This document shows, piece after piece, positions 5,802 to 31,463 of a DNA stretch of 32,000 nt. A program made the position numbers and the translations under genes. The stretch spans positions 210,001 through 242,000 of the forward strand of contig JAUWGH010000007.1 of assembly GCA_030606485.1 (NCBI GenBank). Direction: 5' to 3'. This DNA is from Promethearchaeota archaeon (GTDB taxonomy: Archaea > Asgardarchaeota > Lokiarchaeia > Sigyniarchaeales > SOKP01). The first letter of the stretch is position 1, and each line of letters begins with the position of its first letter. The notes under the pieces are model-generated. The model was not told the origin of the DNA, did no database searches, and worked only from the letters and a program-made list of their open reading frames with translations.

Positions 5802-7187
5802 ATGATAACAAATAATAATTTTCCAAAAGACAATAATGTTCTTTTTGATAGAGGTAAATTTGGTTTAAGAATTACTGAGAAATTTGATAAAGTAAAATGT
5901 TCTGAAATTTATATTCAAAAAACAGAAAGTTTTGCAATAGGATTAGAAAAAAATTCCATCAAAGATTGCAATAAATCTGAAAGTTGTGGATTTTCGGTAA
6001 GAGTTTTTGATAAACGGGGCTCATTAGGTTTTGCATATGCTAATGATATTTCTAGTAAAATAATCGAAAAAACCATAAATAATGCTGTAAAGATGATGAA
6101 AGCTGGACCTCCAAATGATGAATTTAAGGATTTACCATTTCCTAAAAAATCTAATTCTAAAATAACAGGAATTTATGACAAAAACATTAAAGATCTTGAT
6201 TTTGAAACACCATTCGATTTAATTAAAGATATGATAAAAATATCATCTGAAGATTCTCAAGTTGTAACTCAATCTGGGGATTTTTCCTCTCTTTATACTT
6301 ATTATTACGTATTTAATTCAAATGGGATTGAAATATCCTCTGAAGAAACAGCGGCTTCTTTAACATCATCGATTGTAGTTAAAAATAATAGGAAAAATGA
6401 GACTGGAAATGGCTTTCATTGGCAAATAGAAAGGAAATACAAGGATTTAGATGCAATTGAAGTTGTCAATAAAACACTCCAAATGGCTAAAATGAATTTA
6501 AATAGGATTAAAATAGAAACAATGAACGTCCCTCTTGTATTAACTCCAAAAGGAGTAATTAGTTTAATATTAAATCCAATTGCTTCAGCAATAAATGCTG
6601 AAACATTTCAATATAACAGAAGCTTTCTTGTAGGAAAATTAAATCAAAAGATTGGTTCAGATCTGTTAAATATTGAAGATAATGGTTTAATTAATGGAGC
6701 TATAGGGTCTTCAGAATTTGATGCTGAAGGTGTCCCATGTCAAAATAAAAAAATCTTTTCAAATGGAGCATTTTTAACTTTAATTCATAATAGCTTCACC
6801 GCTGGAAAAGATAATGTGGAAAGCACTGGAAACGCACAGAGAAATTCTTTTTCTTCAACCCCTTATATCGGTTCAACTAATTTATTCTTCAATACCGGAG
6901 ATTGTAAAATGCAAGAATTATTTGAAGATATAAAAATTGGAATTCTCTTAGATTATACTGGTGATTCTCCTAATATAGCAACAGGGGATTTCAGCGGGTT
7001 GATTTTAAACGGAAATATTATCCGAAATGATGAAATTCAAGAATCACTGAATGAAACTATGATTGGAATTAATCTTTTAGATCTTTTTAATAGAATAGAG
7101 AAAGTGTCCAATAAACTTGAAGTTTATGGCTCAAAAAATGCTCCTTATGTAAAAATAAGTAATGTTCAAATTTCTGGGTCCAAATGA
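5802..7187 (+). CDS. pmbA: PmbA/TldE family protein (non-catalytic partner)
   Basis: FDAEGVP, STGNA and ATGDFSG motifs, no HExxH; starts 2 nt after tldD. Confidence 0.9.
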   Translation: MITNNNFPKDNNVLFDRGKFGLRITEKFDKVKCSEIYIQKTESFAIGLEKNSIKDCNKSESCGFSVRVFDKRGSLGFAYANDISSKIIEKTINNAVKMMKAGPPNDEFKDLPFPKKSNSKITGIYDKNIKDLDFETPFDLIKDMIKISSEDSQVVTQSGDFSSLYTYYYVFNSNGIEISSEETAASLTSSIVVKNNRKNETGNGFHWQIERKYKDLDAIEVVNKTLQMAKMNLNRIKIETMNVPLVLTPKGVISLILNPIASAINAETFQYNRSFLVGKLNQKIGSDLLNIEDNGLINGAIGSSEFDAEGVPCQNKKIFSNGAFLTLIHNSFTAGKDNVESTGNAQRNSFSSTPYIGSTNLFFNTGDCKMQELFEDIKIGILLDYTGDSPNIATGDFSGLILNGNIIRNDEIQESLNETMIGINLLDLFNRIEKVSNKLEVYGSKNAPYVKISNVQISGSK

Positions 7188-18470: not shown

Positions 18471-18629
18471 TTATATCCTCAATCTTTTTTTATAACATTT
18501 TTGATTAAATTTTAGCTCTACATTCTTAAGAGATATGATTATTTTTTTAATTTAATGCTATCCTTTGTATTTGAATCATAAAAAAAACATTTAATTATAT
18601 TATGAAAAATTAAATTATGTAGAATAAGT

Positions 18630-18872
18630 ATGAATAAATTATTTAAATCCAAATTAAGAATTAGTGATTACATTGATGAGATTTGTCCTGAAAAAATATT
18701 CATTTTTAATGAACAATCTATAAACTTAAAAAAATATTTAATAATTGATAATTCTGCTTTTAGAGTTCTGTTAAGCGGAGTTAGAATGGCTCCCAATACT
18801 ACAATGACTGAATTATTAAGATAAGCGAGTATAATAACTCTAAAATCTATGATTTTGAAGTATGAATTTTAA
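18630..18872 (+). pseudogene. 5' remnant of a Glu/Leu/Phe/Val dehydrogenase gene
   Basis: DEICPEKIF...LIIDNSA...SGVRMAPNTTMTELLR*ASIITLKS resembles the family N-terminus (DExGPEK...LVIDNTA.GP.KGG.RM...E..RLAR.MT.K). In-frame TAA at 18822-18824; homology is lost soon after. Confidence 0.7.
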
Positions 18873-18912
18873 AATAAAAAAAGGTAGAAAAAAAAGAGTT
18901 ATTTTCAATTTT

Positions 18913-20055
18913 TTAGAAACAACGATGTATTACCTGAGGTCCCATCTCTTTATATTCACGCCTAGTCACCCACATTCTATGGAATGTTTTTAGAGATGCG
19001 AGAATGGAACCACCAATCCATACACTGTACATCCGCTCTGGAGGAGCTATAATTTTAACGTCAACGCTTTCAGGAATTTGTTCTTTTATCTCCTTGGTCA
19101 ATCGTTCTTTTAAACCAGGGTACATTGTGGAACCGCCAGAAAGAACGATATTCCCATAGAGATCTCTTCTTAAATCGACATCACATTCAGAAATTGAACT
19201 TACAATAATATCATCCATGGGCTCCAATTCTTTACCAATTACAGATGGGTTAAACATGCATTCAGGTGCAAGGAATCTCTCAACTCCAACATTAATTGTT
19301 TCACCATCTGGTAACATATAGGATTTTTCCATACCTGCTACTTTCTTGGAAAGCATCATTTCCTTTTCCGGATCGACAGCTACATAGCATAATTTCTCTT
19401 TAATGTCTCGTACAATTTCTTTTTCAGCTGAAGTAGTAAATGCATAACCTTTTTGTCTTAGTAATCTTTGTAGGTAATTCGTAATATCTCTACCTGCAAG
19501 ATCAATTCTTTGAATTGCATGGCTTAATGCGAATCCCTCGAATATTGGGACAACGTGTGAAACACCATCTCCAATATCTATAACGCATCCAGTTGTACGA
19601 CCAGAGGCGTATAGAGATAGTACTGCTTGCATAGCAACATATAACGCAGGAACATTAAAGGTTTCAAACATAATTTCAGCCATTTTTTCTCTATTTGGTC
19701 TTGGGTTTAATGGTGCTTCGGTTAAAAGCACTGGATGTTCGCTAGGATCGATACGAAGATCTGTATAAAAAGTATAATGCCATATTTTTTCCATAGCGGT
19801 CCAGTCTTCTATAATACCGTGCTCGACAGGAAACATTAATTTGAGGACACCTTTGAGTTGTAATGCTTCTTCCCCAATATAATACTCTCTAGTATAGTGC
19901 TCTACATCCGTCATTATACTTTCGTATTTAGGATATCCTATAAGCGTTGGAAACACGGATCGTGGCTGATCTTCTCCAGCAAAACCATTCTTTGAAATAC
20001 CAGTTCCATTATCTACGACCAAGGCTTTAGCGGAAAGAAAATCTTCTTCGGTCAT
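18913..20055 (-). CDS. Asgard actin (Lokiactin-type)
   Basis: [94 protein letters not shown]-terminal HRCF. Confidence 0.97.
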
Positions 20056-20311
20056 TGTATTTTACCAATTTGTTTTAATTTAATATTTATTTTTATTGTT
20101 AATATAAAATTACATATATTTTTGGCTTTATAATTTTATATTTTTTAAGTGGATATTTTCACATTTTATATGTAATACACTTAAAGTTAATTTATATATG
20201 CTCTTTTTTCTATTTATATGTTATTATCTGATTCGATAGTAAATGAATGCTTAATGGTTCAGAAATGAGGAAATTATTACCACATATTGAAAAAATTCTT
20301 AGAGTTCTTCG

Positions 20312-20329
20312 ATTTGTATTAATACAAAT
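20312..20329. promoter_or_regulatory. Perfect 18-bp palindrome ATTTGTATTAATACAAAT (candidate protein-binding site)
   Basis: Self-complementary sequence in the intergenic region upstream of lokiactin; function inferred only. Confidence 0.35.
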
Positions 20330-20398
20330 ATCTCAATTATTAGATAAAAAAATCTAAAAAAAATTTAAATGTTAAAATTTAATGAATTTCTAAATACA

Positions 20399-20491
20399 AG
20401 AAATATTAATGATAATTTCTCAATATATGACATTGAGAAAAAATAAACTTTAACTAATTAAAAGGAAGTAAGTTATGTTAACAGGAATTCA
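20399..20491 (+). repeat. 93-nt copy of the radical SAM promoter and first codons (MLTGI); partner at 24391-24483
   Basis: AGAAATATTAATGAT...CATTGAGAAAAAA...TTATGTTAACAGGAATTCA versus AGAAATATTAATGAT...CATTGAGAAAAAA...TTATGTTAACTGGAATTCA. Confidence 0.9.
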
Positions 20492-20496
20492 AATTC

Positions 20497-20523
20497 TAAT
20501 TCAATATCTTGAAAATAAAATGT
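20497..20523 (+). repeat. 27-nt direct repeat (uvrB-like fragment IQYLENKM); partner at 24325-24351
   Basis: TAATTCAATATCTTGAAAATAAAATGT versus TAATTCAATATCTTGAGGATAAAATGT, 2 mismatches. Confidence 0.88.
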
Positions 20524-20838
20524 TCATGGCAACAAAAGAACTAAAAACCCAACTATAGATGGATCTATAACTCCAATAAAATACACTAAGATTATCAAGC
20601 CCGGCCACAATGAAAACCAGCCAATAATGCATGCAAGATATGAGATTTGCCATATATATAAAAACTTACTCCTCATTTTAACAGAAACATGATTATTGAA
20701 CCAATTAAATTGTGAATTGATCTTAGTTCCAGCGATGCTAATGATAAATCCAATTAATGGGGGACCAAAACCCCCTCCAAAAAGGAGTAGAACAATTGAG
20801 AGTAAAAATAAGACCAACTTACTATGCTTTTTTTCCAA
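20524..20838 (-). pseudogene. 3' fragment of an uncharacterised multi-TM membrane protein
   Basis: KKHSKLVLFLLSIVLLLFGGGFGPPLIG looks like the middle of a longer membrane protein. It has only a TTG start, with an in-frame TGA three codons upstream. Confidence 0.5.
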
Positions 20839-20918
20839 TAAACTTCATTATTCTCATGGAAAAGTATTGCATTCTCGCTGATAATTACTATAATTCATAT
20901 ATTTTTTACCATCGAGGA

Positions 20919-21683
20919 CTAAGATGGTTGGGAAACGTCTTTTTTACTGATTTGGATTAATTTCCTCCCAATGAGAAATTGTCAAACTAATATAAAGGGA
21001 GCGGCTAATATAAAGGGAGCGGCAAGGATAATTGGAATGGCAGATAAGGAAGGGAAAAAGATCGTTGGAATAAAATACGAAAGAAGACATAAATTAGCAA
21101 TGATCCCAGAACGTGCATTCAATTTACTAAATATCGGATTCCTTAGCATAATGATTGAGGAAATTAAACACGCTGATACTATAAAGAAATGACTTAAATA
21201 CATTGCAGTTCCTTGAAAAGCTATTCCGGGATTATTTATGGCTAATAATGCTTCACCTGCAGCGAGAAGTATCAATCGTTGTTCTTCGGAAGTGGTATTG
21301 AAGTAAAGTTTACTGAGGTTTAGCAATGCAAAAGCTTGGTTGGATGCGAAAGATAATATTATTCCGACTAAACCTAGAACAGAAGCATATACCATTGCAC
21401 CATAATTGGTTTTATGGAGAACTCCAAAGAGAGCTAAAAGCATCACCCCGACTAAAAAATTATTGACTAAGTCAAAAATATCTAGAAAAACTAAACCCAA
21501 AAATGGACTATCATCTAGAAGAGTAAACCATTCAATTGCAGTTGTGGGCATAACCTCAGGACCAATATGGAAAATTCCATTGAGTTCTGAACCAATATTT
21601 TTCCTGAAGATGAATACGGCAAGTAACGCGACAATTCCGCCTATTTTAAATAATAAATTCCATTGAGTTCTATTTTCTTCCAT
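20919..21683 (-). CDS. DUF4386-like membrane protein, probably truncated by a TGA at 20982-20984
   Basis: Multi-TM protein with PTTAIEWFTLL and LLNLSKLY...QRLILLAAGEALLA; likely ATG at 21683. The frame continues past the TGA as QFLIGRKLIQI to a TAG at 20919. Confidence 0.6.
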
Positions 21684-21717
21684 TTTTGGAAGACCGCCAG
21701 AAGTAGATACAGTTGTT

Positions 21718-22332
21718 TTAGTTGCATTTCGCAAGTTCACTCATCTCTCCGTTTATAATAGGTGGATTTGCCAATTCTTTTGCCAATTCTTTTGCCCAAT
21801 TCTGGATGGCATCCCAGTTTCTCGTATCATAGACTCCTGGTTTTGTCTCCTTGATTCCTGCAGCTTTAAGTTCTAATTTTAGTGGCCCCATAAATTTTTT
21901 AGCCCAGAATGGCATATTATTATAATCCCATATACCTCCAAACAGACCCATTGAGATTGGATGCAGATTATATTTAGAAGCTTTTTCTTCAAGGTATTTT
22001 CTTCTCGCTCTCCCAATTTCTTCGGGGTCTCCATCATGATCGGGTAAACCTTGTGCACCAGAGGACACAAAGAGAGCCACTTTCTTGTTTTCCAGTTCTC
22101 GACTAAATCGTTTCAAAAAACCTTCAGCTTTACTAGTCCATCTGTTGATCTGAATTCCGCTGCCAATAATAATAAGCTCATACTCTGCTATATCTCGAAC
22201 TTTCTCTTTTTTGAGATTAACTACCTTAACATCTAATTCTTCATCTTGAAGAACTTTAGCAATTTCCTCTGCGGTACCGGTAGTTGCTCCATAACGGGTA
22301 CCATATACAATTAAAATTTTGTTTTTTTTCAT
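21718..22332 (-). CDS. Flavodoxin domain protein (HemG/Flavodoxin_5-like)
   Basis: ILIVYGTRYGATTGTAEEIA FMN-binding loop, YELIIIGSGI, VALFVS, DTRNWDAIQNWAKEL; ATG at 22332 preferred to TTG at 22350. Confidence 0.85.
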   Translation of the reverse strand: MKKNKILIVYGTRYGATTGTAEEIAKVLQDEELDVKVVNLKKEKVRDIAEYELIIIGSGIQINRWTSKAEGFLKRFSRELENKKVALFVSSGAQGLPDHDGDPEEIGRARRKYLEEKASKYNLHPISMGLFGGIWDYNNMPFWAKKFMGPLKLELKAAGIKETKPGVYDTRNWDAIQNWAKELAKELANPPIINGEMSELAKCN

Positions 22333-22336
22333 TTTT

Positions 22337-23014
22337 TTATCTTCCTCCAATTATTTTTTTTCTAGCTATCCCTTGTAATAACATGTCAATCGAGTGTTGA
22401 AGATATCCCTCAGCGGTGATGCCATACGTCTCTAAGAGTAATTGATTTACGGGAGATAGATGTACTATACCCTCAATGGCAGAAACCAAGAACATTACTG
22501 TCTTTATTGGATCCATGTCCTTTCTTATTGTACCATCTTTAATTCCCAAACTGACAGCGTCCGTTAACATACCAAGTAATTCTTTTTTTAGTCCGATATA
22601 TTCTTCCGCGTTTTCAATTTCTGTATCATCATCCTCGTCGATTTGAAGCATTTTCATAAAACGAGGAGCTCTAGCTGAAAGATTAAGACGATAATAATCT
22701 GAGTGAATTTGTATGTAATCAAAGTAAGCTAGAATTATGCTCATTATTTTTCCTAATCCTGTAGTCTCGTTTTTTACAGCATTTTTAAACGTATCCCTAA
22801 GGATAACCATACCTTTTATTACTACGGCAAAATACAACGAAAGTTTATTTTTAAAATACAAATAGAGCGTCGTTTTAGAAAGCTCTAAATCTCCAGCGAT
22901 ATCATCCATGGAGACCTCATCATAACCTTTTTCAAAGAATCTCTTTTTTGCGGCTTCGAGGATATTATTGTATCGTTGTAATTTTTCGCGTTCTCTTCTA
23001 GATAATTTTGAAAT
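22337..23014 (-). CDS. TetR/AcrR family transcriptional regulator (start extended to an ATT)
   Basis: The frame upstream of ATG 22909 is open and reads SKLSRREREKLQRYNNILEAAKKRFFEKGYDEVS-MDDIAGDLELSKTTLYLYFKNK, a complete TetR HTH. GGTGA SD at 23021-23025. Confidence 0.85.
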   Translation of the reverse strand: MSKLSRREREKLQRYNNILEAAKKRFFEKGYDEVSMDDIAGDLELSKTTLYLYFKNKLSLYFAVVIKGMVILRDTFKNAVKNETTGLGKIMSIILAYFDYIQIHSDYYRLNLSARAPRFMKMLQIDEDDDTEIENAEEYIGLKKELLGMLTDAVSLGIKDGTIRKDMDPIKTVMFLVSAIEGIVHLSPVNQLLLETYGITAEGYLQHSIDMLLQGIARKKIIGGR

Positions 23015-23051
23015 CTTAATTCACCACTTTTAATTTATTAATCACTTTGTC

Positions 23052-23100
23052 TTACTACAAGTTATTTATTTTACTAATAGTAAGGTAATTACTATAGTGA
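23052..23100. promoter_or_regulatory. Array of three TTACTA-N-TAGTAA-like palindromes upstream of tetR
   Basis: TTACTACAAGTTA (23052), perfect TTACTAATAGTAA (23071), TTACTATAGTGA (23089); spacing 19 and 18 nt. Confidence 0.7.
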
Positions 23101-23101
23101 T

Positions 23102-23992
23102 CTAGGGGGTGGATGGATGTGATTTTTGCTTAACCATTTCTTGTACTCGTGCGTAAGGATGTAGATATCTTCCTTTCTCTTCAGTAAAGGATTTCATGTA
23201 GAATTTCGAGTATACTTGAATCGCTTGGGTAGGACAATAATTCAAGCAGGCATAACACATATAACATTCAATATTGCGCTGCCATGAAGGTGTATCATTC
23301 ACTATGGTAATTTTCTTAGAAAGACATACTTTCTCACAGGTTCCACACCCGGTACATTTTGAATCAGCGTAAAAGTATTTTCTTACTTTCGTAGCTACGT
23401 GATGGACTGCAAAAGGAATAAGTCGTTCTAAAATATAGTTCAGTGGGCGAAAGCGAGAAAACGTGACTCCGCTAACGTCGTCTTGATATAGTTCTCGATT
23501 AATTATCGTTTTTTGAATCAAATTTAGTTTTTGCTGCACGTTCCTTTCAATTTCTTTTAATTCCTCGCTTTTCGGGACGATAAAGGATTTCAATTTGGGG
23601 TCATTCATATACATATTGATAATGAAGCTTGCGTGTATTTCTTTTTCTTGTTTTTTAAGAATATTATTGATGGTCATAAATCCGCGAAAAATGGTTCCTC
23701 CACGGGTTGCAATTGCAAAAAGATACTCGGAAGCTGTCAAGTCGAGTTTCCTCAAGAACTTTTTTACCGGAATGGGAATGGTTAAACCGTGACAAGGAAA
23801 GACGAACCCGATAGTATCTGCGGTGGTTTCTATTTTTTTATCCCTCTCATCCTCCCCCACCTTTACCTTTGAACATGCATTTAAAAGCGCCGCAATGGGG
23901 ACGAGCGTCGAGTCTGGAATCCGTTTTTGTAATTCTCTTGCAACATATAACGAGTTTCCAGTTCCTGAAAAATAATAGATTTCGGTGGTCAT
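23102..23992 (-). CDS. EFR1-family ferredoxin (N-terminal flavodoxin-like domain plus 2x[4Fe-4S])
   Basis: YFSGTGNSLYVA, IGFVFP, CTGCGTCEKVC and CYMCYACLNYCP. Confidence 0.88.
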   Translation of the reverse strand: MTTEIYYFSGTGNSLYVARELQKRIPDSTLVPIAALLNACSKVKVGEDERDKKIETTADTIGFVFPCHGLTIPIPVKKFLRKLDLTASEYLFAIATRGGTIFRGFMTINNILKKQEKEIHASFIINMYMNDPKLKSFIVPKSEELKEIERNVQQKLNLIQKTIINRELYQDDVSGVTFSRFRPLNYILERLIPFAVHHVATKVRKYFYADSKCTGCGTCEKVCLSKKITIVNDTPSWQRNIECYMCYACLNYCPTQAIQVYSKFYMKSFTEEKGRYLHPYARVQEMVKQKSHPSTP

Positions 23993-24035
23993 GGGAATTA
24001 ACTTTATTTTCTTATTAATATAAGTCCATTATAAG

Positions 24036-24084
24036 TTACTATTAGTAATACTCTGACTATCAGTAATTATATTACTAATAGTAA
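24036..24084. promoter_or_regulatory. Array of three TTACTA-N-TAGTAA palindromes upstream of the EFR1 gene
   Basis: TTACTATTAGTAA (24036), TGACTATCAGTAA (24054), TTACTAATAGTAA (24072); exact 18-nt period. Confidence 0.75.
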
Positions 24085-24158
24085 TATTTGTATATAAATC
24101 TTGCGATCATAGAAATAGATGTTAAATTCAAAGTTTAACTTTGAGATATAATACATAG

Positions 24159-24353
24159 ATGGACCATAATACATAGAATAGCATTACTCCACAAACTATT
24201 CAGAAAAACATTTTAGATTCTCTTTCTGAAGAACAGGAATTTAAGGAAAGGGAGGTCAAAAGATTAAAGCAAAATGTTCATGATAAAATCCAAGAATTAG
24301 AGAAAGAAGGAGATATTGAAGTTGTAATTCAATATCTTGAGGATAAAATGTAG
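24159..24353 (+). pseudogene. uvrB: Remnant of a uvrB-like 3' end
   Basis: MDHNT*NSITPQTIQKNILD...IEVVIQYLEDKM* resembles the UvrB tail (MEYNxxHGITPxTIxKxI...UVR coiled coil); internal TAG at codon 6. Confidence 0.6.
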
Positions 24354-24390
24354 CATTTAAAAAAATTTGGCTTTAATAATTATAAAAACT

Positions 24391-24483
24391 AGAAATATTA
24401 ATGATTATATCTCAGTGTATAGCATTGAGAAAAAAATGAAAAATTAACTGTAAAAGAAAGAATATTATGTTAACTGGAATTCA
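24391..24483 (+). repeat. Radical SAM promoter/start region duplicated at 20399-20491
   Basis: See partner repeat. Confidence 0.9.
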
Positions 24484-25369
24484 TTTTCTTCTAACATATG
24501 CCTGTAATTTTGAATGTAATCACTGCTTTTTATATTGTTCACCGGTTTCAGAGGGAACTTTCAACCTTAAGCAAATAAGGAACGTTCTTGATGAGGCAAC
24601 CAAAATTGAAACGATAGAATGGATTTATTTTGAAGGTGGGGAACCATTTCTTTACTATCCGCTGATGCTTGAGGGGATAAAAATTGCACGTAATAAAGGA
24701 TTTAAGGTTGGAATAGTAACTAATTCGTATTGGGCAACGGCTATTGAAGATGCATCACTTTGGCTTAAGCCAATTCGAGATCTTGAAGTTTCGGATTTCA
24801 GCGTTAGTGATGATTTATATCATTTCGAAGATGAAAAAGAAAATCTCGCTAAAATAGCTTTCACGGCTGGGAAAAAACTGAATTTACCTATGAGTTCGAT
24901 AACTATTGAGGAACCTACAGTTGAAGTTGAAATAACTAAGGAACAAGAAAAAGGAGCACCAGTTATCGGTGGAGGTGTTATGTTTAGGGGAAGGGCTGTC
25001 GAAAAGTTAATTGAAGGATTACCTCTAAGATGGTGGGAAGAATTTAACCAATGTCCATATGAAGATTTGAGAGATCCTGGGAGAATTCACGTTGATTCAT
25101 TTGGAAACGTCCATCTATGCCAAGGTTTGAGTTTAGGTAATATGTGGGAAATACCATTATCAAAGTTGATTAAGAATTATGATGCGGATTCGCATCCAAT
25201 CTGCGGACCTTTAATTAGAGGAGGTCCTGCCCAATTAGTTAAGGAATATGATATTAAACATGAAGATAAATATGTTGATGAATGTCATTTATGTTATCTT
25301 GCTCGCTTAGCGTTAATAGATAAGTTCCCTAGGTATCTTACACCAAGACAGGTATACGGATTAGAATAG
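24467..25369 (+). CDS. Radical SAM protein with Cys-containing (SPASM/twitch-like) C-terminus
   Basis: CNFECNHC (CxxxCxxC), FEGGEPFL, IVTNSY, and C-terminal CPY...VHLCQG...ICG...DECHLC. Confidence 0.9.
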   Translation: MLTGIHFLLTYACNFECNHCFLYCSPVSEGTFNLKQIRNVLDEATKIETIEWIYFEGGEPFLYYPLMLEGIKIARNKGFKVGIVTNSYWATAIEDASLWLKPIRDLEVSDFSVSDDLYHFEDEKENLAKIAFTAGKKLNLPMSSITIEEPTVEVEITKEQEKGAPVIGGGVMFRGRAVEKLIEGLPLRWWEEFNQCPYEDLRDPGRIHVDSFGNVHLCQGLSLGNMWEIPLSKLIKNYDADSHPICGPLIRGGPAQLVKEYDIKHEDKYVDECHLCYLARLALIDKFPRYLTPRQVYGLE

Positions 25370-25418
25370 GAATTAAATTATAATAAGAGAAAGAGACCTA
25401 GTATTTAATATTAAAAGC

Positions 25419-26555
25419 TTAGCGAGTAATCATCAACTGCTCTAATTCTTCCCTCATTTTTTTAATTTTAGGTTTCTCAAAATGCTCTCGAGCTGGACTC
25501 AAAATATCAATTATCTTATTTGCAATGCCATTTTTTAGGTCGAGTGGATGAATTTTTTTGTCTAAAAATGCATCATCCAATTCTTGGTAGGAAAAAAATT
25601 CTATATCGCCACCATATTGCGCAGACCTCTCGATCAGAAAATGAGAGTCTTTTTCTCTGAAGATAATTGATTTTGCCCAATCTAAAATTGGATTAAATGT
25701 TATATTCCCTTCAGGACAGAATGCAGAATTTATTTTATCTTTTATTTCTTGAGGGTTATCATGAATGAAGACAGCTGATTTTGGAATTGATTTGCTCATT
25801 TTCATTTTAGCCCATAATTCTTGCAGTTGAGATTCATCTGATATTGGCCATATTGGTGGTTTTTGTAAGCCTAAGATTAAATGATGATGGACGCAAATAG
25901 GCTTAATTTTTTTGCCTGTTGTGTTAACTAGGTTATTCTTCTTCATTTTCATTGCAACATCTCGAGCAATCACATGAGCTTTTCTTTGGTCATAACCGGC
26001 ATGCGCAAAATTAATATTTTGGATAAAGATATCCGCAACTTGCATAGCTGGGTATAATAATTTTGCGAAATCGATATTTTCTCCCATTTTCCTCCCCATT
26101 ATTGTAATACTCCTTTGCATTCTGTTTAATGTGGTATTTTTACAAACATCAATGACTGTCTCCCAATAATTATCGTTGTAATGATATAACTCTGTGCCAA
26201 GTGTAAAATTAACCTTATCTGGGTCAGCCCCAACGCACAGTAAGCTTGCCTTTAACCCTTCTTTAAAATATCCAACTGCAACTTCCTTAATTTTTTCCAT
26301 ATTCCCGCTTAATTTGTCGTTGATATAGCTGTGCCAATCAGCTAGGAAAATTGAGCATTTTATTCCAGCATCTAAAAAATCTTTAATTTTACCCATACAG
26401 ATAATCCCAGTCCCTAAATGAATCTTTCCCGAAACCTCAAAGCCAATATAATGATTTAGGGGGATCCCTGTCTCAAGATAAAGTTTTAAATCGTCATCAG
26501 TAAGTACTTCTTCAGTCCCTCTTTTAATTAAGTTAAATTTTTCTTTAACGTCCAT
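25419..26555 (-). CDS. tyrS: Tyrosine--tRNA ligase (archaeal type)
   Basis: YIGFEVSGKIHLG (HIGH equivalent), LYPAMQVADI, GYDQRKAH, KMSKS, INSAFCP, LHPLDLK-like IHPLDLK. Confidence 0.96.
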   Translation of the reverse strand: MDVKEKFNLIKRGTEEVLTDDDLKLYLETGIPLNHYIGFEVSGKIHLGTGIICMGKIKDFLDAGIKCSIFLADWHSYINDKLSGNMEKIKEVAVGYFKEGLKASLLCVGADPDKVNFTLGTELYHYNDNYWETVIDVCKNTTLNRMQRSITIMGRKMGENIDFAKLLYPAMQVADIFIQNINFAHAGYDQRKAHVIARDVAMKMKKNNLVNTTGKKIKPICVHHHLILGLQKPPIWPISDESQLQELWAKMKMSKSIPKSAVFIHDNPQEIKDKINSAFCPEGNITFNPILDWAKSIIFREKDSHFLIERSAQYGGDIEFFSYQELDDAFLDKKIHPLDLKNGIANKIIDILSPAREHFEKPKIKKMREELEQLMITR

Positions 26556-26759
26556 ATTAGGAAATAAAAATCCCCTCTTTAATTATTTTATTAATAACAT
26601 GGGTTATCTAAAACAACGGAAATAACAATATTTCAATCTAAATTAAATTTTAATAATCCAATCCATAAAAAAAATTAAATTGTTAATAAATAAAAATTAT
26701 TTAAATATCTGAATTCAATTATATAAAGTGATTAAAAATTAAAATCAAGTGAATAAAAT

Positions 26760-27467
26760 ATGAGTGTAAAATCATTTTTCGAAAATCTTTGCTTGTTTGT
26801 GGGTGGAACTGTTTTAATCTTAGGAAATATATATCGCGATTTTTTCTTTATCACTATAGGTTCATTAATGGGAGTGGTGTCTCTTGTTCTAGCAATATTG
26901 ATAACAATTGAAAAGAAAGATGAGGAGACTCTCAATGAAAAGATATATTATAATGCTCTCAATTATCTCTATATCGTTGGAATAATTTTAACTATTGGAT
27001 TCCCTATTACAGATCCTACAGTACAACGACTCTTATTTGATGTCGCATTGACTATTGCTACATTTATGATTCTTATTTTTATATGGAATATTTTATATTT
27101 CAAATATAACTTTATGAAAATTGATATAGCAGACACAGATTTTCGAGATCCAACTAAAAAAATACTACTTCCTAGATTCCTTCTTGTATCATTAATCTTA
27201 GGCTTTATACTCGGAGGTATCAATTTCGTTATTAAATTTTTATATAGTTCTATTTTTGTTATTACTGGTTCAAGCGACATAGCTTTCATGATATCAAGTT
27301 ATATTTTACTTATAGTAGTGGCAGTATTTGTTTTAATACTAATCTTTTATCAAAATTTCCAGAAAATGGGCGTAAAATTTAAAGAGATTAAAAAGGAAAA
27401 ACCCAAGAAACCTACAAAGAAAAAGCAAGAAATCAAAAAAGAAACACCTCCTGCTCCAGAAAAATAA
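26760..27467 (+). CDS. Hypothetical multi-TM membrane protein with Lys-rich C-terminal tail
   Basis: About six hydrophobic segments; basic/Pro-rich tail. Confidence 0.6.
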   Translation: MSVKSFFENLCLFVGGTVLILGNIYRDFFFITIGSLMGVVSLVLAILITIEKKDEETLNEKIYYNALNYLYIVGIILTIGFPITDPTVQRLLFDVALTIATFMILIFIWNILYFKYNFMKIDIADTDFRDPTKKILLPRFLLVSLILGFILGGINFVIKFLYSSIFVITGSSDIAFMISSYILLIVVAVFVLILIFYQNFQKMGVKFKEIKKEKPKKPTKKKQEIKKETPPAPEK

Positions 27468-27527
27468 AAATTATAAAAAAAATAAAATTAGAAGAAAATC
27501 CAAGTTATTTTTTATTTTTTATTTATC

Positions 27528-28148
27528 TTAATTAATTGAAAGAACTTCCTTTATCTCTTCTAAAATTTTTGTTTCATTTCGAAATTGGATTCCAATCATT
27601 CCAATTTGTTCAGCCACTTTCACATTTTTTCTGTTATCATCTATGAAAATGCATTCACTCGGCTTATAATTAATATGCTCTAATACATGTAAAAATATTT
27701 TGGGATCTGGTTTTATCATACCTAGTTCAAAAGAGTAAAAAACTTGGTTAAAATAATCTCGGAAATCAATTATATTTTTTGCAAGAAATTCTACATGCAA
27801 GGGGTTGGTATTCGAAAGAGCGAAAACTTTATACATCTTATCTTTTTTCAATTTTTTAATAAAATCAAGAAGCTTATAGTTCAGTGAATCGAAAATGCTA
27901 TTGAACATATTAAAAAATTCTTCTTTACCTACATCTTGAAATTGAAATCTTTTTTTCGCTTCTTGATAAAATTCTTCTTTAGAAAATAAGCCTTTATCCA
28001 ATTTTTCGATTGGTTCCCATAGATCTTTATAAATATTAATCTGTTTATTGTCTGATTTTGGTAATATTTTTTTGTAAAATTTTCTCATATTGAGATTAAC
28101 AATAACGTTGCCAAGATCAAAAATTAAAGCCTTGATGGTGTTGGTCAT
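27528..28148 (-). CDS. HAD-superfamily phosphatase
   Basis: IFDLGNVI motif I, LSNTN motif II, KPDPKIF motif III, FIDD motif IV. Confidence 0.92.
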   Translation of the reverse strand: MTNTIKALIFDLGNVIVNLNMRKFYKKILPKSDNKQINIYKDLWEPIEKLDKGLFSKEEFYQEAKKRFQFQDVGKEEFFNMFNSIFDSLNYKLLDFIKKLKKDKMYKVFALSNTNPLHVEFLAKNIIDFRDYFNQVFYSFELGMIKPDPKIFLHVLEHINYKPSECIFIDDNRKNVKVAEQIGMIGIQFRNETKILEEIKEVLSIN

Positions 28149-28250
28149 ATTTAAATAAAGTAAAGAATGAAAGGATTAAAATATTCTTTTTAAAACAATG
28201 TAGTAAAAAAATCTTGCCTTTATGTCTTAGAAGAACAGCGATAAATAAAA

Positions 28251-28763
28251 TTAAGCGCGTATGATTACCTTTACTAAACCTTTTTTACGTAATTTTTCCA
28301 TCATTTCTTCAATTTCTTCCACAGACTTTTCTGCAATCGCGGCAACCTGTTCTAACGAATTATTTCCATCACAAATCTTTAAAACTTTATATTCTTCTTG
28401 AGTGAGCATTCCAAATTGTATTGAAATCTCTGAAACTTCTTTAACAACTATTGGAATTCGAGCACCTACACCACCATAGGCTTCAGTAGCTGGAGCTTCA
28501 CCAAAGAATGCCTTGGCACCTGTGATCTCATATTTATCATTTATATAAATGTGGATATTATGTTCTTCCCCAGATCTATCATCTGGATTATCGGGATCCG
28601 GTTTTGAATGGCTATGTCGATAGCGCTTCGTATAAATTCCAGTTTGAAGACCATTGTGAATTTCTTCTTTATCAATCTTCAAAGGGACCATTTCTTGGCA
28701 TATATCACACCAGACCCAGGCCTCTATCAATTTAAAATATTTTTTTACTTTATTTATAGGCAT
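28251..28763 (-). CDS. Hypothetical protein: N-terminal Cys/His putative metal-binding domain plus C-terminal winged helix
   Basis: WCDICQ, RHSH and EHNIH in the N-terminal half; LTQEEYKVLKICDGNNSLEQVA...MEKLRKKGLVK wHTH. Confidence 0.6.
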   Translation of the reverse strand: MPINKVKKYFKLIEAWVWCDICQEMVPLKIDKEEIHNGLQTGIYTKRYRHSHSKPDPDNPDDRSGEEHNIHIYINDKYEITGAKAFFGEAPATEAYGGVGARIPIVVKEVSEISIQFGMLTQEEYKVLKICDGNNSLEQVAAIAEKSVEEIEEMMEKLRKKGLVKVIIRA

Positions 28764-29071
28764 AATTAAACCAATATATCATATAAATTAAATAAATATT
28801 ACTACATTTTTAGAGCACAGATATTATATTAAAAATAGTTTCTTTAGAATTTAAATATTAAATCCTATATTTCATCTCTTCACTAAAACCAAATAATTTA
28901 ATAAAATTGAAAAAAACAATAACAAAAACAGATTTAATAAACTACCTTAAATGGAAATCATCCAAATTATATTTAAAATTAATTTTATCTCCTATTTTTC
29001 AATTTTTTTAAATGATTTAAGTATTTAGATTCAAAAAAATAAAATATTAAAGTTATAGATAATTTTTTTAA

Positions 29072-29239
29072 ATGATTATGGAACAATGTTCTTGTTGTGG
29101 TCGAAAAATTACTCCTTTCGAAAACAGTGTTCACTTCCCATGTCCAAATTGTGGAGACGTAACAATTTGGCGTTGTGAGAAATGTAGAGTAGCGGGTAAC
29201 AGTTATACTTGTATTAAGTGTGATTTTCTGGGCCCATAA
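29072..29239 (+). CDS. Small Zn-ribbon protein (DUF1610/COG2888-like), missed by the ORF track
   Basis: MIMEQCSCCGRKI...FPCPNCG...IWRCEKCR...YTCIKCDFLGP, four CxxC pairs; conserved position upstream of EF-1beta; start at 29072 or 29078. Confidence 0.88.
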   Translation: MIMEQCSCCGRKITPFENSVHFPCPNCGDVTIWRCEKCRVAGNSYTCIKCDFLGP

Positions 29240-29274
29240 TTAACTATAAAGAATTTTTAGAAGGTTATTAGGAA

Positions 29275-29544
29275 ATGGGAAAATATTATGTTGGTTTGGT
29301 TGAAATTATTCCAGAAGGTATTGATGCTGATTTTAATGGTATCGTGGAAGAATTAAAAAAAAGGCTTCCAGAAGGTGCTTCACTTGTAAAATATGAACAA
29401 ATCCCAATCGCTTATGGATTAGAAAAATTGAGAGTGCAGGTAAAATTTCCAGTAGAAATGGGTTCAGCCGACTCAATTGAAGAATCTTGGGTTCAAATTG
29501 AAGGAATTCAACGTGTAGAAACTATTTTGATTTCAAAGGCGTGA
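29275..29544 (+). CDS. ef1b: Translation elongation factor aEF-1 beta
   Basis: IIPEGIDAD, EQIPIAYGLEKL, DSIEESW..IEGIQRVET. Confidence 0.92.
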   Translation: MGKYYVGLVEIIPEGIDADFNGIVEELKKRLPEGASLVKYEQIPIAYGLEKLRVQVKFPVEMGSADSIEESWVQIEGIQRVETILISKA

Positions 29545-29579
29545 AAGTTAAACGTTCTCTACAAACACTTTTTTTATAT

Positions 29580-31463
29580 TTAAACTATTCTCTTAAACAT
29601 TTTATCAATATCTCTAAAACTGATTACTCTATACGTGGGCCTTCCATGTGCGCAATGATATGGATCTTTGCATTTTGATAAATCTAATACCAATTTTCTT
29701 ATATCCTTTAATGTTAGATAATCCCCTCCCCGAATACTTTTATGACATGCAAGATAATTGATAATCTCCTCCTCAGAATCGGAAAAACTCTGTTGCTTAC
29801 CAATGTTTGCGATTTCTTCTATCATGTCTTTAAGCACATCTAATTTAGGGAGCTTTCCAAAAATTGCTGGTATCGCCCTTAAAATAAAAGTGGCCCCCCC
29901 GAAATCCTCTAATTCAAATCCAAACTTATTAATCTCACTTAAGTGTTCTTTCAAAAAAAAACGTTCAGCTGGAGAGATATTAATTTTTAAGGGATAAATT
30001 AATTGCTGTTTTTGAACTTTCGAACCTCTATATTGACTTAAAAATCGCTCTTTCATGATTCTTTCTGAAGCTGCATGTTGATCAATAATTAATATCGTTG
30101 GATTACCATCCTCATCATTACTTTCAAATAGTATATAAACATTATTACTTAATTGTCCTGTTCTGGAAATAGGACGCATTTTAGGTAAGGTATCAGTAAT
30201 AATATATTGCTCGCGTGATAATGATTCTGTTATGGCATTTTCAAATTTTTTATCAAGGATATCCTCGGTTATTAGTTTAGTTTGTATCATTTCCTTCGAT
30301 TTTACTGAGTCGATAAGGCTTGAATTAGCGGGAATATTTGATGCTTTTTCTTTTGCAATTAATGATACATCTACACGAGAAGTAATATCCATAAATTCAG
30401 ATAGAATTTCCTCTTTCTCTTCTTCAATAAATGTTTCCAACGGTTTTGTGATTATTTCCTCCTTTTTTGGTAAGAATAATTCTTCTAGGTGTCTTCTCAA
30501 TGCATTTTCTATAAAAGGGAATAAGACTTTTTCATTATTAAATCGAACAGTCATCTTTTGTGGATGGATATTAAAGTCTACATTCGCAGGATTTATATCC
30601 AAATTTAAAATAAAGAAAGGAAACCTCCCAACCATTAAGAAACCTTTATACGCATCCTTAATTACTTCAAAAAATTTATCAGATATAACATATCTCTTAT
30701 TAAGAAATAAACTGGAACTAGTTCTTTTTTTTTTCGAAATTTCTGGGTCACCTAGCAAGCCAGACAATGCAAATAGCCCATCGGGATGGATATAATCGAT
30801 TGGATACATTTTTTTAGCAATTTCTTTTCCATATATATGGAAAACCATATCTTTTAAATCATCTGAAGGTGGACAATTAAGAATATCTAAATCGTTGTGT
30901 TGATAGATAAAATGAATTTGAGGATAACCTAAGGCATATCTAGTGATTATATCGGTAATATGACCAAGTTCCACCCTGTTTGTTTTTAAAAATTTTTGTC
31001 TCGCGGGAATATTATAGAATAGATTTTTAACTTTTATATTCGTTCCGACAGGAGCTGAAATTTCCTTTTTTTCAATAACCCCTCCGCCATGAATTACGAT
31101 GGTCGAACCTAAATCATCGTTTTTAGTGCGTGTTATTAATTCTACTTGTGAAACTACCGCGATACTACTAAGAGCTTCTCCCCGAAATCCTAATGTTGTT
31201 AGAGTATCTAAATCTTCAAATTTTTCTATTTTTCCGCTTGTATAACGATCAAAAGCGATTTCTACATCCTCTTTTTCAATACCGTAGCCATCATCAATTA
31301 CTTGAATCAAACTTTTTCCTGCATTTTTAATTATAATCTTGATGTTCTTTGCCCCTGCATCAATCGAATTTTCCACCAATTCTTTAACAACTGAAGCAGG
31401 CCGTTCAACAACTTCTCCGGCTGCTATTTTTTCGAAATCTTTTATTTTTTTTATTCGCTGCAT
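29580..31463 (-). CDS. mutL: DNA mismatch repair endonuclease MutL
   Basis: IAAGEVVERPASVVKELVENSIDAGA, TLGFRGEAL, endonuclease motif DQHAASERIMKE, ACHK, CAHGRP. Confidence 0.97.
   Translation of the reverse strand: MQRIKKIKDFEKIAAGEVVERPASVVKELVENSIDAGAKNIKIIIKNAGKSLIQVIDDGYGIEKEDVEIAFDRYTSGKIEKFEDLDTLTTLGFRGEALSSIAVVSQVELITRTKNDDLGSTIVIHGGGVIEKKEISAPVGTNIKVKNLFYNIPARQKFLKTNRVELGHITDIITRYALGYPQIHFIYQHNDLDILNCPPSDDLKDMVFHIYGKEIAKKMYPIDYIHPDGLFALSGLLGDPEISKKKRTSSSLFLNKRYVISDKFFEVIKDAYKGFLMVGRFPFFILNLDINPANVDFNIHPQKMTVRFNNEKVLFPFIENALRRHLEELFLPKKEEIITKPLETFIEEEKEEILSEFMDITSRVDVSLIAKEKASNIPANSSLIDSVKSKEMIQTKLITEDILDKKFENAITESLSREQYIITDTLPKMRPISRTGQLSNNVYILFESNDEDGNPTILIIDQHAASERIMKERFLSQYRGSKVQKQQLIYPLKINISPAERFFLKEHLSEINKFGFELEDFGGATFILRAIPAIFGKLPKLDVLKDMIEEIANIGKQQSFSDSEEEIINYLACHKSIRGGDYLTLKDIRKLVLDLSKCKDPYHCAHGRPTYRVISFRDIDKMFKRIV

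Follow-up and report, generated by a model that had tools for sequence, protein, structure and literature searches.

Several described routes by which DNA joins a chromosome resemble, each in part, what we find in front of a radical SAM gene of a Promethearchaeota archaeon (Lokiarchaeia), where a block of evidently foreign genes, here called the cassette, separates that gene from the neighboring lokiactin gene. All positions refer to the window, that is, the whole 32,000-nucleotide (nt) stretch of DNA that was analyzed (positions 210,001 to 242,000 of contig JAUWGH010000007.1). Microhomology-mediated break-induced replication (MMBIR) and fork stalling and template switching (FoSTeS) have been described in eukaryotes and in Escherichia coli. 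Circular replicons, such as the small circular viral DNAs found in eukaryotic genomes, can be integrated illegitimately at greater than unit length. The integrated elements of Asgard archaea include Yucahu-i and mini-Yucahu in Atabeyarchaeia (PMC11529989), as well as the aloposons and HeimV/HeimM at tRNA sites (PMC8813620). Homology-facilitated illegitimate recombination (HFIR), finally, belongs to naturally transformable bacteria in the account of de Vries and Wackernagel (2002) as cited in PMC6382021.

Our preferred explanation, to which we give a probability of about 0.7, is that the cassette is the fixed scar of a one-off illegitimate, microhomology-mediated insertion of foreign chromosomal DNA that made use of no element-encoded machinery. 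The target would have been the start of the radical SAM gene, of which some 135 to 140 nt (from the promoter to codon 7) now lie on both sides of the cassette, as P on the left and P' on the right. The incoming DNA would have been a patchwork of about 0.4 kb across the uvrB-uvrA junction of another lokiarchaeial genus and about 3 kb of an aldehyde:ferredoxin-oxidoreductase neighborhood. The insert would begin within the uvrB piece and end 26 nt past the same point, slightly over one unit having been copied. In this regard, the locus shares much with MMBIR and FoSTeS: the insert combines segments from different loci, microhomology and a small filler occur at the joints, the flank at the target is present twice, and one of the template loci appears to have been visited a second time. 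It differs in that the templates are foreign (from another genus) and not part of the cell's own chromosome, and in that the process itself is not something a sequence can show directly.

That the cassette was inserted is apparent from relatives that lack it. In the window, the site is flanked on the left by the lokiactin gene (18913 to 20055, minus strand; Pfam Actin, E=8e-134) and on the right by the radical SAM gene (24467 to 25369, plus strand; Pfam Radical_SAM). Orthologues of the latter, 89 to 93% identical at the amino acid level, occur in three congeneric genomes (G001 to G003) and on three metagenome contigs (L058, L059, and L060), and in all of them the lokiactin gene directly adjoins the radical SAM gene, in the order lokiactin, 418 nt, radical SAM gene, with a single P. 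L059 and L060 proved to be one sequence, hence there are five distinct empty sites. The window holds exactly 3992 nt beyond these sites, matching the start-to-start distance from P to P' (3992 nt). The original prediction, made from the letters of the window, had proposed looking in relatives for lokiactin beside the radical SAM gene with just one P, and this check came out in its favor.

A metagenome assembly that had joined two strains into a chimera would be expected to contain P copies of two different types, as the window does. Against this, both junctions recur independently: the European Nucleotide Archive scaffold L154 is colinear with the window from 19098 to 29992 at 99.6%, L160 (98.8%) is another independent assembly that supports the junctions, and a separate lineage, represented by the contig L166, has them at 94 to 96%. 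In addition, the left junction (J1) is bridged by a Logan contig of another study (X12, record 11; 20325 to 21038, with 2 mismatches), and the stretch around it was found in 20 runs of 9 studies, from cold-seep and marine sediments, with no RNA run listed among them. The right junction (J4) is bridged by contigs of other studies (X12, record 16; X6, record 31; X15, record 24) and is present on nine further contigs. Because independent assemblies and contigs of other studies bridge both junctions, misassembly, a worry raised with the original prediction, is excluded, and the locus is a real insertion; a chimera of two strains is to our minds practically inconceivable.

P spans 20357 to 20497 (plus strand), with an ATG at 20475; it belongs to what we call the L type and is now an orphan. 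P' lies within 24352 to 24489 (plus strand), is of the R type, and now drives the radical SAM gene. By repeat scan and gapped local alignment, 20378 to 20497 and 24372 to 24489 are about 83% identical (score, 105). Within the whole 3.75-Mb genome, P matches only itself and P', besides one 35-nt match at E=9e-4, which disposes of the idea that it is a generic promoter motif. At J1 (20486 to 20503, plus strand), as seen by comparison with the empty sites and with real uvrB genes, codons 4 to 7 of the radical SAM gene meet uvrB. The junction comprises three AATTC(A/T) units and reads GG-AATTCA-AATTCT-AATTCA-ATATC; AATTCA is common to radical SAM codons 4 to 6 and to uvrB, and J1 sits inside this microhomology, which had been noticed beforehand. 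At the other side, J4 (24351/24352, plus strand) consists of about 7 nt of filler, after which P' begins.

J1 also creates a 27-amino-acid (aa) chimeric open reading frame (ORF; 20475 to 20558, plus strand), in which the radical SAM start is joined in frame to the uvrB piece and which translation recovered as originally described. Because its length differs between the window and L166, and is thus not conserved, this ORF is probably not functional. In L166 (reverse complement, 6078 to 6218), the radical SAM start and the last 38 UvrB codons form, in frame, a 46-aa ORF with a UVR domain, which lies under the orphan promoter and ends at the natural uvrB stop. Both P copies further contain a hairpin or palindrome with a 9-bp stem (TCTCA...TGAGA), at 20416 to 20440 and at 24410 to 24430, between the TATA-like box and the start codon. 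The hairpin is present in both promoter types, though its loop and upper stem differ, and it may be an operator or a 5' untranslated region element of the radical SAM gene. An Rfam scan of 20000 to 24700 at E≤1 gave no match, and the hairpin thus corresponds to no known RNA family.

A second pair of repeats, R and R', lies inside the first, giving the order P-R...R'-P' along the window; alignment and repeat scan agree with the original prediction on this point. The stretches 20487 to 20523 and 24315 to 24351 are identical at 32 of 37 positions (score, 49, versus 17.7 for shuffles, with a standard deviation of 2.5; z of about 12). However, the first 11 nt of the aligned R (20487 to 20497) are junction microhomology and not duplicated sequence proper, so the true overlap is only 26 nt long (20498 to 20523 versus 24326 to 24351), with 2 mismatches. 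A third copy of R 5' of P, hinted at by MAFFT, was rejected, its local alignment score (26) being that of chance (25 ± 3).

R had been put forward as a direct-repeat element. The repeat is real, but R and R' turn out, on the evidence that follows, to be the overlapping ends of one foreign uvrB-uvrA fragment, and not ends of ORFs, which makes the insert circularly permuted; this identification is new here. The first uvrB piece (24137 to 24351, plus strand), found by tblastn with the UvrB protein of genome G014, ends with R' (24326 to 24351). Three in-frame TAG stops at about 24129 to 24179 (just 5' of the piece and in its first codons) are followed by 57 open codons, with no start codon. The DNA of the frame that bears R' corresponds to the 3' portion of uvrB from many genomes of the family, with the best matches (87 to 89% nucleotide identity) in genus g11 (G014, G060, and G085). 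The genome's own uvrB is intact, lies on another contig (C5), and shares only about 63% amino acid identity with the fragment in this region; by this comparison, the fragment is foreign and closest to another genus, and the resident gene was not its template. The second piece (20498 to 20544, plus strand) aligns to uvrB of 19 other genomes. It opens with R (20498 to 20523), continues with the codons ..MFMATKEL, and carries on the uvrB reading (..IQYLENKMFMATKEL) as far as 20544; metagenome uvrB contigs depart from the window at 20542 to 20544 and read on as ..RFEDAAYLRD. When the two ends of the window's cassette are joined head to tail, they align without a gap to real uvrB genes. The joined ends of L166 (442 nt) give a single colinear match to the uvrB-uvrA locus of G014, spanning the uvrB stop and the uvrA start, which indicates that the captured piece was a contiguous stretch of the uvrB-uvrA operon.

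These results bear directly on whether the cassette could be a nonautonomous site-specific integrative element whose recombinase acts in trans and whose attachment (att) site is R (26 to 27 bp) or P. Like the integrated elements of Asgard archaea, it is a few-kilobase block, present in some relatives and absent from others, with direct repeats bracketing the cargo, and small integrated elements that have short att repeats and occur alongside circles are indeed on record for Asgard genomes (PMC11529989). In those elements, however, the att repeat is short and exact and recurs in the empty site, an integrase is encoded or the element sits at a tRNA gene, and circular forms coexist with the integrated one. 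Here no recombinase was found, the empty site lacks the inner repeat, and a free form was not observed. Because R is missing from all five empty sites and is merely a piece of coding sequence from uvrB, we consider a site-specific element very unlikely. P does occur once per empty site, but it is about 120 nt long and its two copies share only 83% identity; moreover, neither pair of repeats is perfect, and one lies inside the other in permuted order. Only one genomic place carries the cassette, and the contigs of four runs, which drop rare variants and so do not show absence, contained neither an excised form nor a joint that skips the cassette. Searches of Pfam and NCBIfam with the cargo ORFs gave no match to integrase, transposase, rep, or any recombinase family, as the original prediction had held for integrases and transposases. 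An insertion sequence element or transposon was rejected separately: there is no transposase, none of the 25 longest inverted-repeat pairs lies at the ends of the cassette, and the target duplication measures about 135 to 140 nt (versus 2 to 15 bp).

The cargo genes all lie on the minus strand and occur in none of the four congeners, and the cargo is foreign to the genus. With no mobility genes and with J1 lying in microhomology, the earlier proposal of a foreign cassette captured without a classical mobile element is thereby borne out. The principal part of the cargo is a module of three genes, which encode an EFR1-family ferredoxin (23102 to 23992, minus strand; flavodoxin-like domain and 2x[4Fe-4S]; NCBIfam NF038196, 181.7 bits versus a cut-off of 75), a TetR-family regulator (22337 to 22909, minus strand; Pfam TetR_N and TetR_C; 74 to 89% amino acid identity to module homologues), and a flavodoxin (21718 to 22350, minus strand; Pfam Flavodoxin_5, E=2e-19). 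This module recurs at 68 to 82% nucleotide identity in at least five other genera (g2, g11, g4, g9, and g3). Elsewhere it adjoins memX, a membrane-protein gene, and the gene for aldehyde:ferredoxin oxidoreductase (L168, L170, and L171), and we read the cargo as a piece of such a neighborhood. Upstream of the ferredoxin gene lies the promoter/operator region of the module (23993 to 24136, no strand assigned), and homology to every other module copy stops at 24131 to 24136 (in L167, L168, and L169 within this interval, in G007 at 24132), which we term junction J3; on the other side, homology stops at about 21782. A palindrome, TTACTAATAGTAA, is repeated at 23063 to 23083 and 24064 to 24084, 5' of the tetR and EFR1 ferredoxin genes, and similar ones are present in the homologous spacer of L167; these palindromes are probably TetR operators.

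The remaining cargo is made up of membrane-protein sequence. An internal fragment of memX (20545 to 20850, minus strand) is called as an ORF of 104 aa (20524 to 20838), the last 7 codons of which are antisense to the uvrB piece. Longer memX homologues (P0122, P0123, and P0124) extend beyond the fragment on both sides, and L170 and L171 continue past 20542; to judge from these, the 104-aa ORF is an internal part of memX that was cut at 20545. Loose contig ends cluster at 20707 to 20724, and L170 also breaks at 20710, with a PAS sensor gene inserted there. Next to the fragment is the body of a DUF4386-like membrane-protein gene (20851 to 21694, minus strand; ORF 20982 to 21740; weak Pfam DUF4386 match), which is shared with L170 at 89.6% nucleotide identity and absent from L166, where 203 other bases are found. 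The encoded protein is rare in the family (3 distant homologues among 134 genomes), and near the end of its gene an 18-nt unit is perfectly duplicated in tandem (3' end, 20987 to 21022), so that six residues (AAPFIL) are repeated at the C terminus. At least three source blocks can thus be told apart, namely the uvrB-uvrA piece, memX with the DUF4386-like gene, and the three-gene module, with breakpoints at 20544/20545, about 21782, and 24131 to 24136. Two of the joints inside the cassette are non-native: J2, at 20544/20545 in the window or at uvrA codon 26 in L166, and J3, at 24131 to 24136.

A second lineage in which the site is occupied gives some sense of the age of the event and preserves an earlier form of the cassette. 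An EFR1 ferredoxin (P0001), 96% identical, is encoded on L166, a 23.9-kb Logan contig whose flanks are 94 to 100% identical to the window and whose J1 and J4 are exactly the same. In place of window positions 20545 to 21694, L166 carries a different 446 nt, comprising the remainder of uvrB to its natural stop, the 42-nt uvrB-uvrA spacer, uvrA codons 1 to 26, 57 nt equivalent to window 20794 to 20850, and 203 nt of another membrane-protein segment. Since L166 has the same J1 and J4, the insertion is older than the split of the two lineages (synonymous divergence [dS], about 0.1), with the interior remodeled afterwards by loss or swapping of segments. This age and the later remodeling refine the original account. 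Between the window and L166, the dN/dS ratios of the three module genes, all of them intact, are 0.42 to 0.58, versus 0.04 to 0.24 for the actin, tyrosyl-tRNA synthetase (TyrRS), and radical SAM genes, a pattern that indicates relaxed purifying selection on the three electron-transfer and regulator genes.

P had first been taken for a copy of the radical SAM promoter. P and P' are indeed repeats, but not fresh duplicates. The window's P is 97 to 99% identical to the single P of G001, L058, and L059 and to the P of L166, whereas P' reaches 98% identity with the P' of L166 but only 92% with the P of G002 and G003. Read along the positions that distinguish P from P', every empty site changes type exactly once, giving a clean mosaic with L type on the left and R type on the right. 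The switch falls between 20395 and 20414 in G003 and between 20417 and 20425 in G002; in G001, L058, and L059 the sequence is of L type up to 20483, and the switch falls between 20483 and 20492. Because P and P' represent two types that also segregate among empty sites, a simple recent duplication of P in place can, on these comparisons, be excluded, and the exact history is left among three scenarios. An attempt to polarize the two types by outgroup failed, the upstream regions of other genera's radical SAM orthologues not aligning; the ACA at codon 4 weakly hints that the L type is ancestral. The L-type segment (20378 to 20491, compared with L025, L058, L059, and L166) differs by at most 2.6% over six lineages with dS of 0.1 to 0.43, and the adjacent intergenic DNA by 4 to 9%. 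From the synonymous divergence of these species (0.2 to 0.43), far less uniform L-type copies would be expected. Such uniformity suggests either strong constraint or recent spread of a 100-nt segment across species.

In the first scenario, a two-step HFIR, an R-type congener would already have carried the cassette 5' of its radical SAM gene. A fragment of its DNA would have been taken into an L-type recipient, where homology within the radical SAM gene or past it anchored one end and the other end was joined at AATTCA in the recipient's radical SAM start; P would then be the recipient's and P' the donor's. This would directly explain why P is wholly of L type up to the junction and P' wholly of R type, and also why the 5' 40 nt of P' (24352 to 24390) are unlike the intergenic region of all empty sites. 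The genus, furthermore, is visibly mosaic, as described below. As in HFIR, the incoming DNA is foreign and devoid of mobility genes, a homologous stretch (the radical SAM gene) adjoins one side, recipient sequence can be duplicated, and the other junction lies at a short microhomology (AATTCA at J1) within the 3- to 10-bp class that is documented for transformable bacteria in the account given by PMC6382021. Unlike in HFIR, the recipient is archaeal, the circularly permuted insert overlaps itself by 26 nt at its ends, J4 is nonhomologous as well, and no homologous anchor tract could be demonstrated. An R-type genome with the cassette was not found among the sequences compared, nor was there a clean donor tract downstream of P'; site by site, the radical SAM and TyrRS genes show a mosaic pattern. 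The scenario also shifts the origin of the R/R' overlap to an unsampled donor without explaining the overlap itself and, to our knowledge, HFIR has not been demonstrated in archaea. We regard it as possible, if unlikely.

A second possibility is that the cassette is old in the genus and that at least some empty sites are secondary: P and P' would have recombined, deleting the cassette and leaving L-to-R mosaic promoters behind. In favor of this, all empty sites are clean single-switch mosaics, L then R, with differing switch points, and P has diverged from P' (about 0.2) to roughly the extent that species differ at synonymous sites (0.2 to 0.4). However, the uniformity of the L-type P noted above is too great for an orphan that has been drifting since before the species split. 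Each L-type empty site would, moreover, need a crossover in the last 14 nt of homology, and the cargo is found only in the window species and L166. We are accordingly rather skeptical of this history. The third scenario is a duplication in place, after which one of the copies was converted by DNA of a congener.

To return to the preferred explanation, an illegitimate, microhomology-mediated insertion, the form in which the DNA arrived is suggested by the ends of the insert. Because these overlap by 26 nt, slightly more than one unit was copied, and the incoming DNA was probably circular or was copied round more than once. We infer a replicative mechanism of the MMBIR type, in which a circle or concatemer would have served as the template for microhomology-primed, break-induced or rolling-circle-like synthesis; serial template switching, with the uvrB locus visited twice, would be an equivalent route. 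That the template was specifically circular we hold to be slightly less probable than an even chance. Like circular replicons integrated at greater than unit length, the insert starts and ends in the same segment and has short terminal redundancy and microhomology junctions. Unlike such replicons, the cassette contains no recognizable replication gene or origin and carries ordinary chromosomal genes.

Several observations weigh against this explanation. No donor genome with the uvrB piece beside the cargo was present among 135 genomes of the family. The predicted circle or tandem joint (24351 to 20498) was not seen in the contigs of the four runs, which drop rare variants, and the 135 genomes of the family likewise showed no free circle or tandem array. 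Since J2 and J3 are non-native, a circle would itself have needed two illegitimate joins. R and R', which should have been identical at the start, differ at 2 of 26 positions. Finally, P and P' are about 17% apart and each matches a different empty-site type, so a single duplication in place does not suffice; something more would be needed, whether conversion or the arrival of P' with the donor DNA.

Contigs of two studies (X6 and X12) join position 23981 (the start of the EFR1 ferredoxin gene) to 20707 (memX codon 44), with the same 21 letters between them, so that some related DNA has the genes in cyclically permuted order or exists in a tandem or circular form. A search of genome contigs for the 21-nt linker returned just two chance matches, in unrelated bacteria. 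A bolder proposal would be that Lokiarchaeia acquire genes through small extrachromosomal circles of chromosomal DNA that have no replication or integration genes, are stitched together from unrelated loci, and enter a broken chromosome when rolling-circle synthesis, primed by microhomology, copies them in. The permuted joint of the two metagenomes could be a trace of such circles; we nonetheless consider the general proposal doubtful.

The surroundings of the cassette are themselves variable. Local identity to different congeners swings from 87% to 99.5% along the region, and because local identities are so strongly mosaic, short-tract exchange between species of the genus is evidently common. 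A gene for a 235-aa membrane protein (26760 to 27467, in a segment from 26594 to 27546) is present in G001, G002, and L059 but missing from L166, and G003 has no counterpart of it; with the cassette, this makes two presence/absence polymorphisms, 1.2 kb apart. On the far side of the lokiactin gene, the spacer toward a PAS histidine kinase gene (18471 to 18912) is 95.6% identical to L166, whereas G001, G002, L058, and L059 align to it over only about 94 nt, making it another lineage-specific segment by the actin gene.

Taken as a whole, the locus is a well-resolved example of an Asgard archaeon gaining the genes of another genus without mobile-element machinery, documented by its two junctions, an unoccupied site, and an intermediate form. 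It clearly exemplifies a type of event already known, a one-off scar that defines no new system. It also marks the lokiactin neighborhood as a recombination-active spot in a genus whose species swap short tracts freely. Horizontal transfer by a route akin to extrachromosomal circular DNA or MMBIR is otherwise known from eukaryotes; if the circle-based reading is true, the cassette would represent a route of this kind in Lokiarchaeia.

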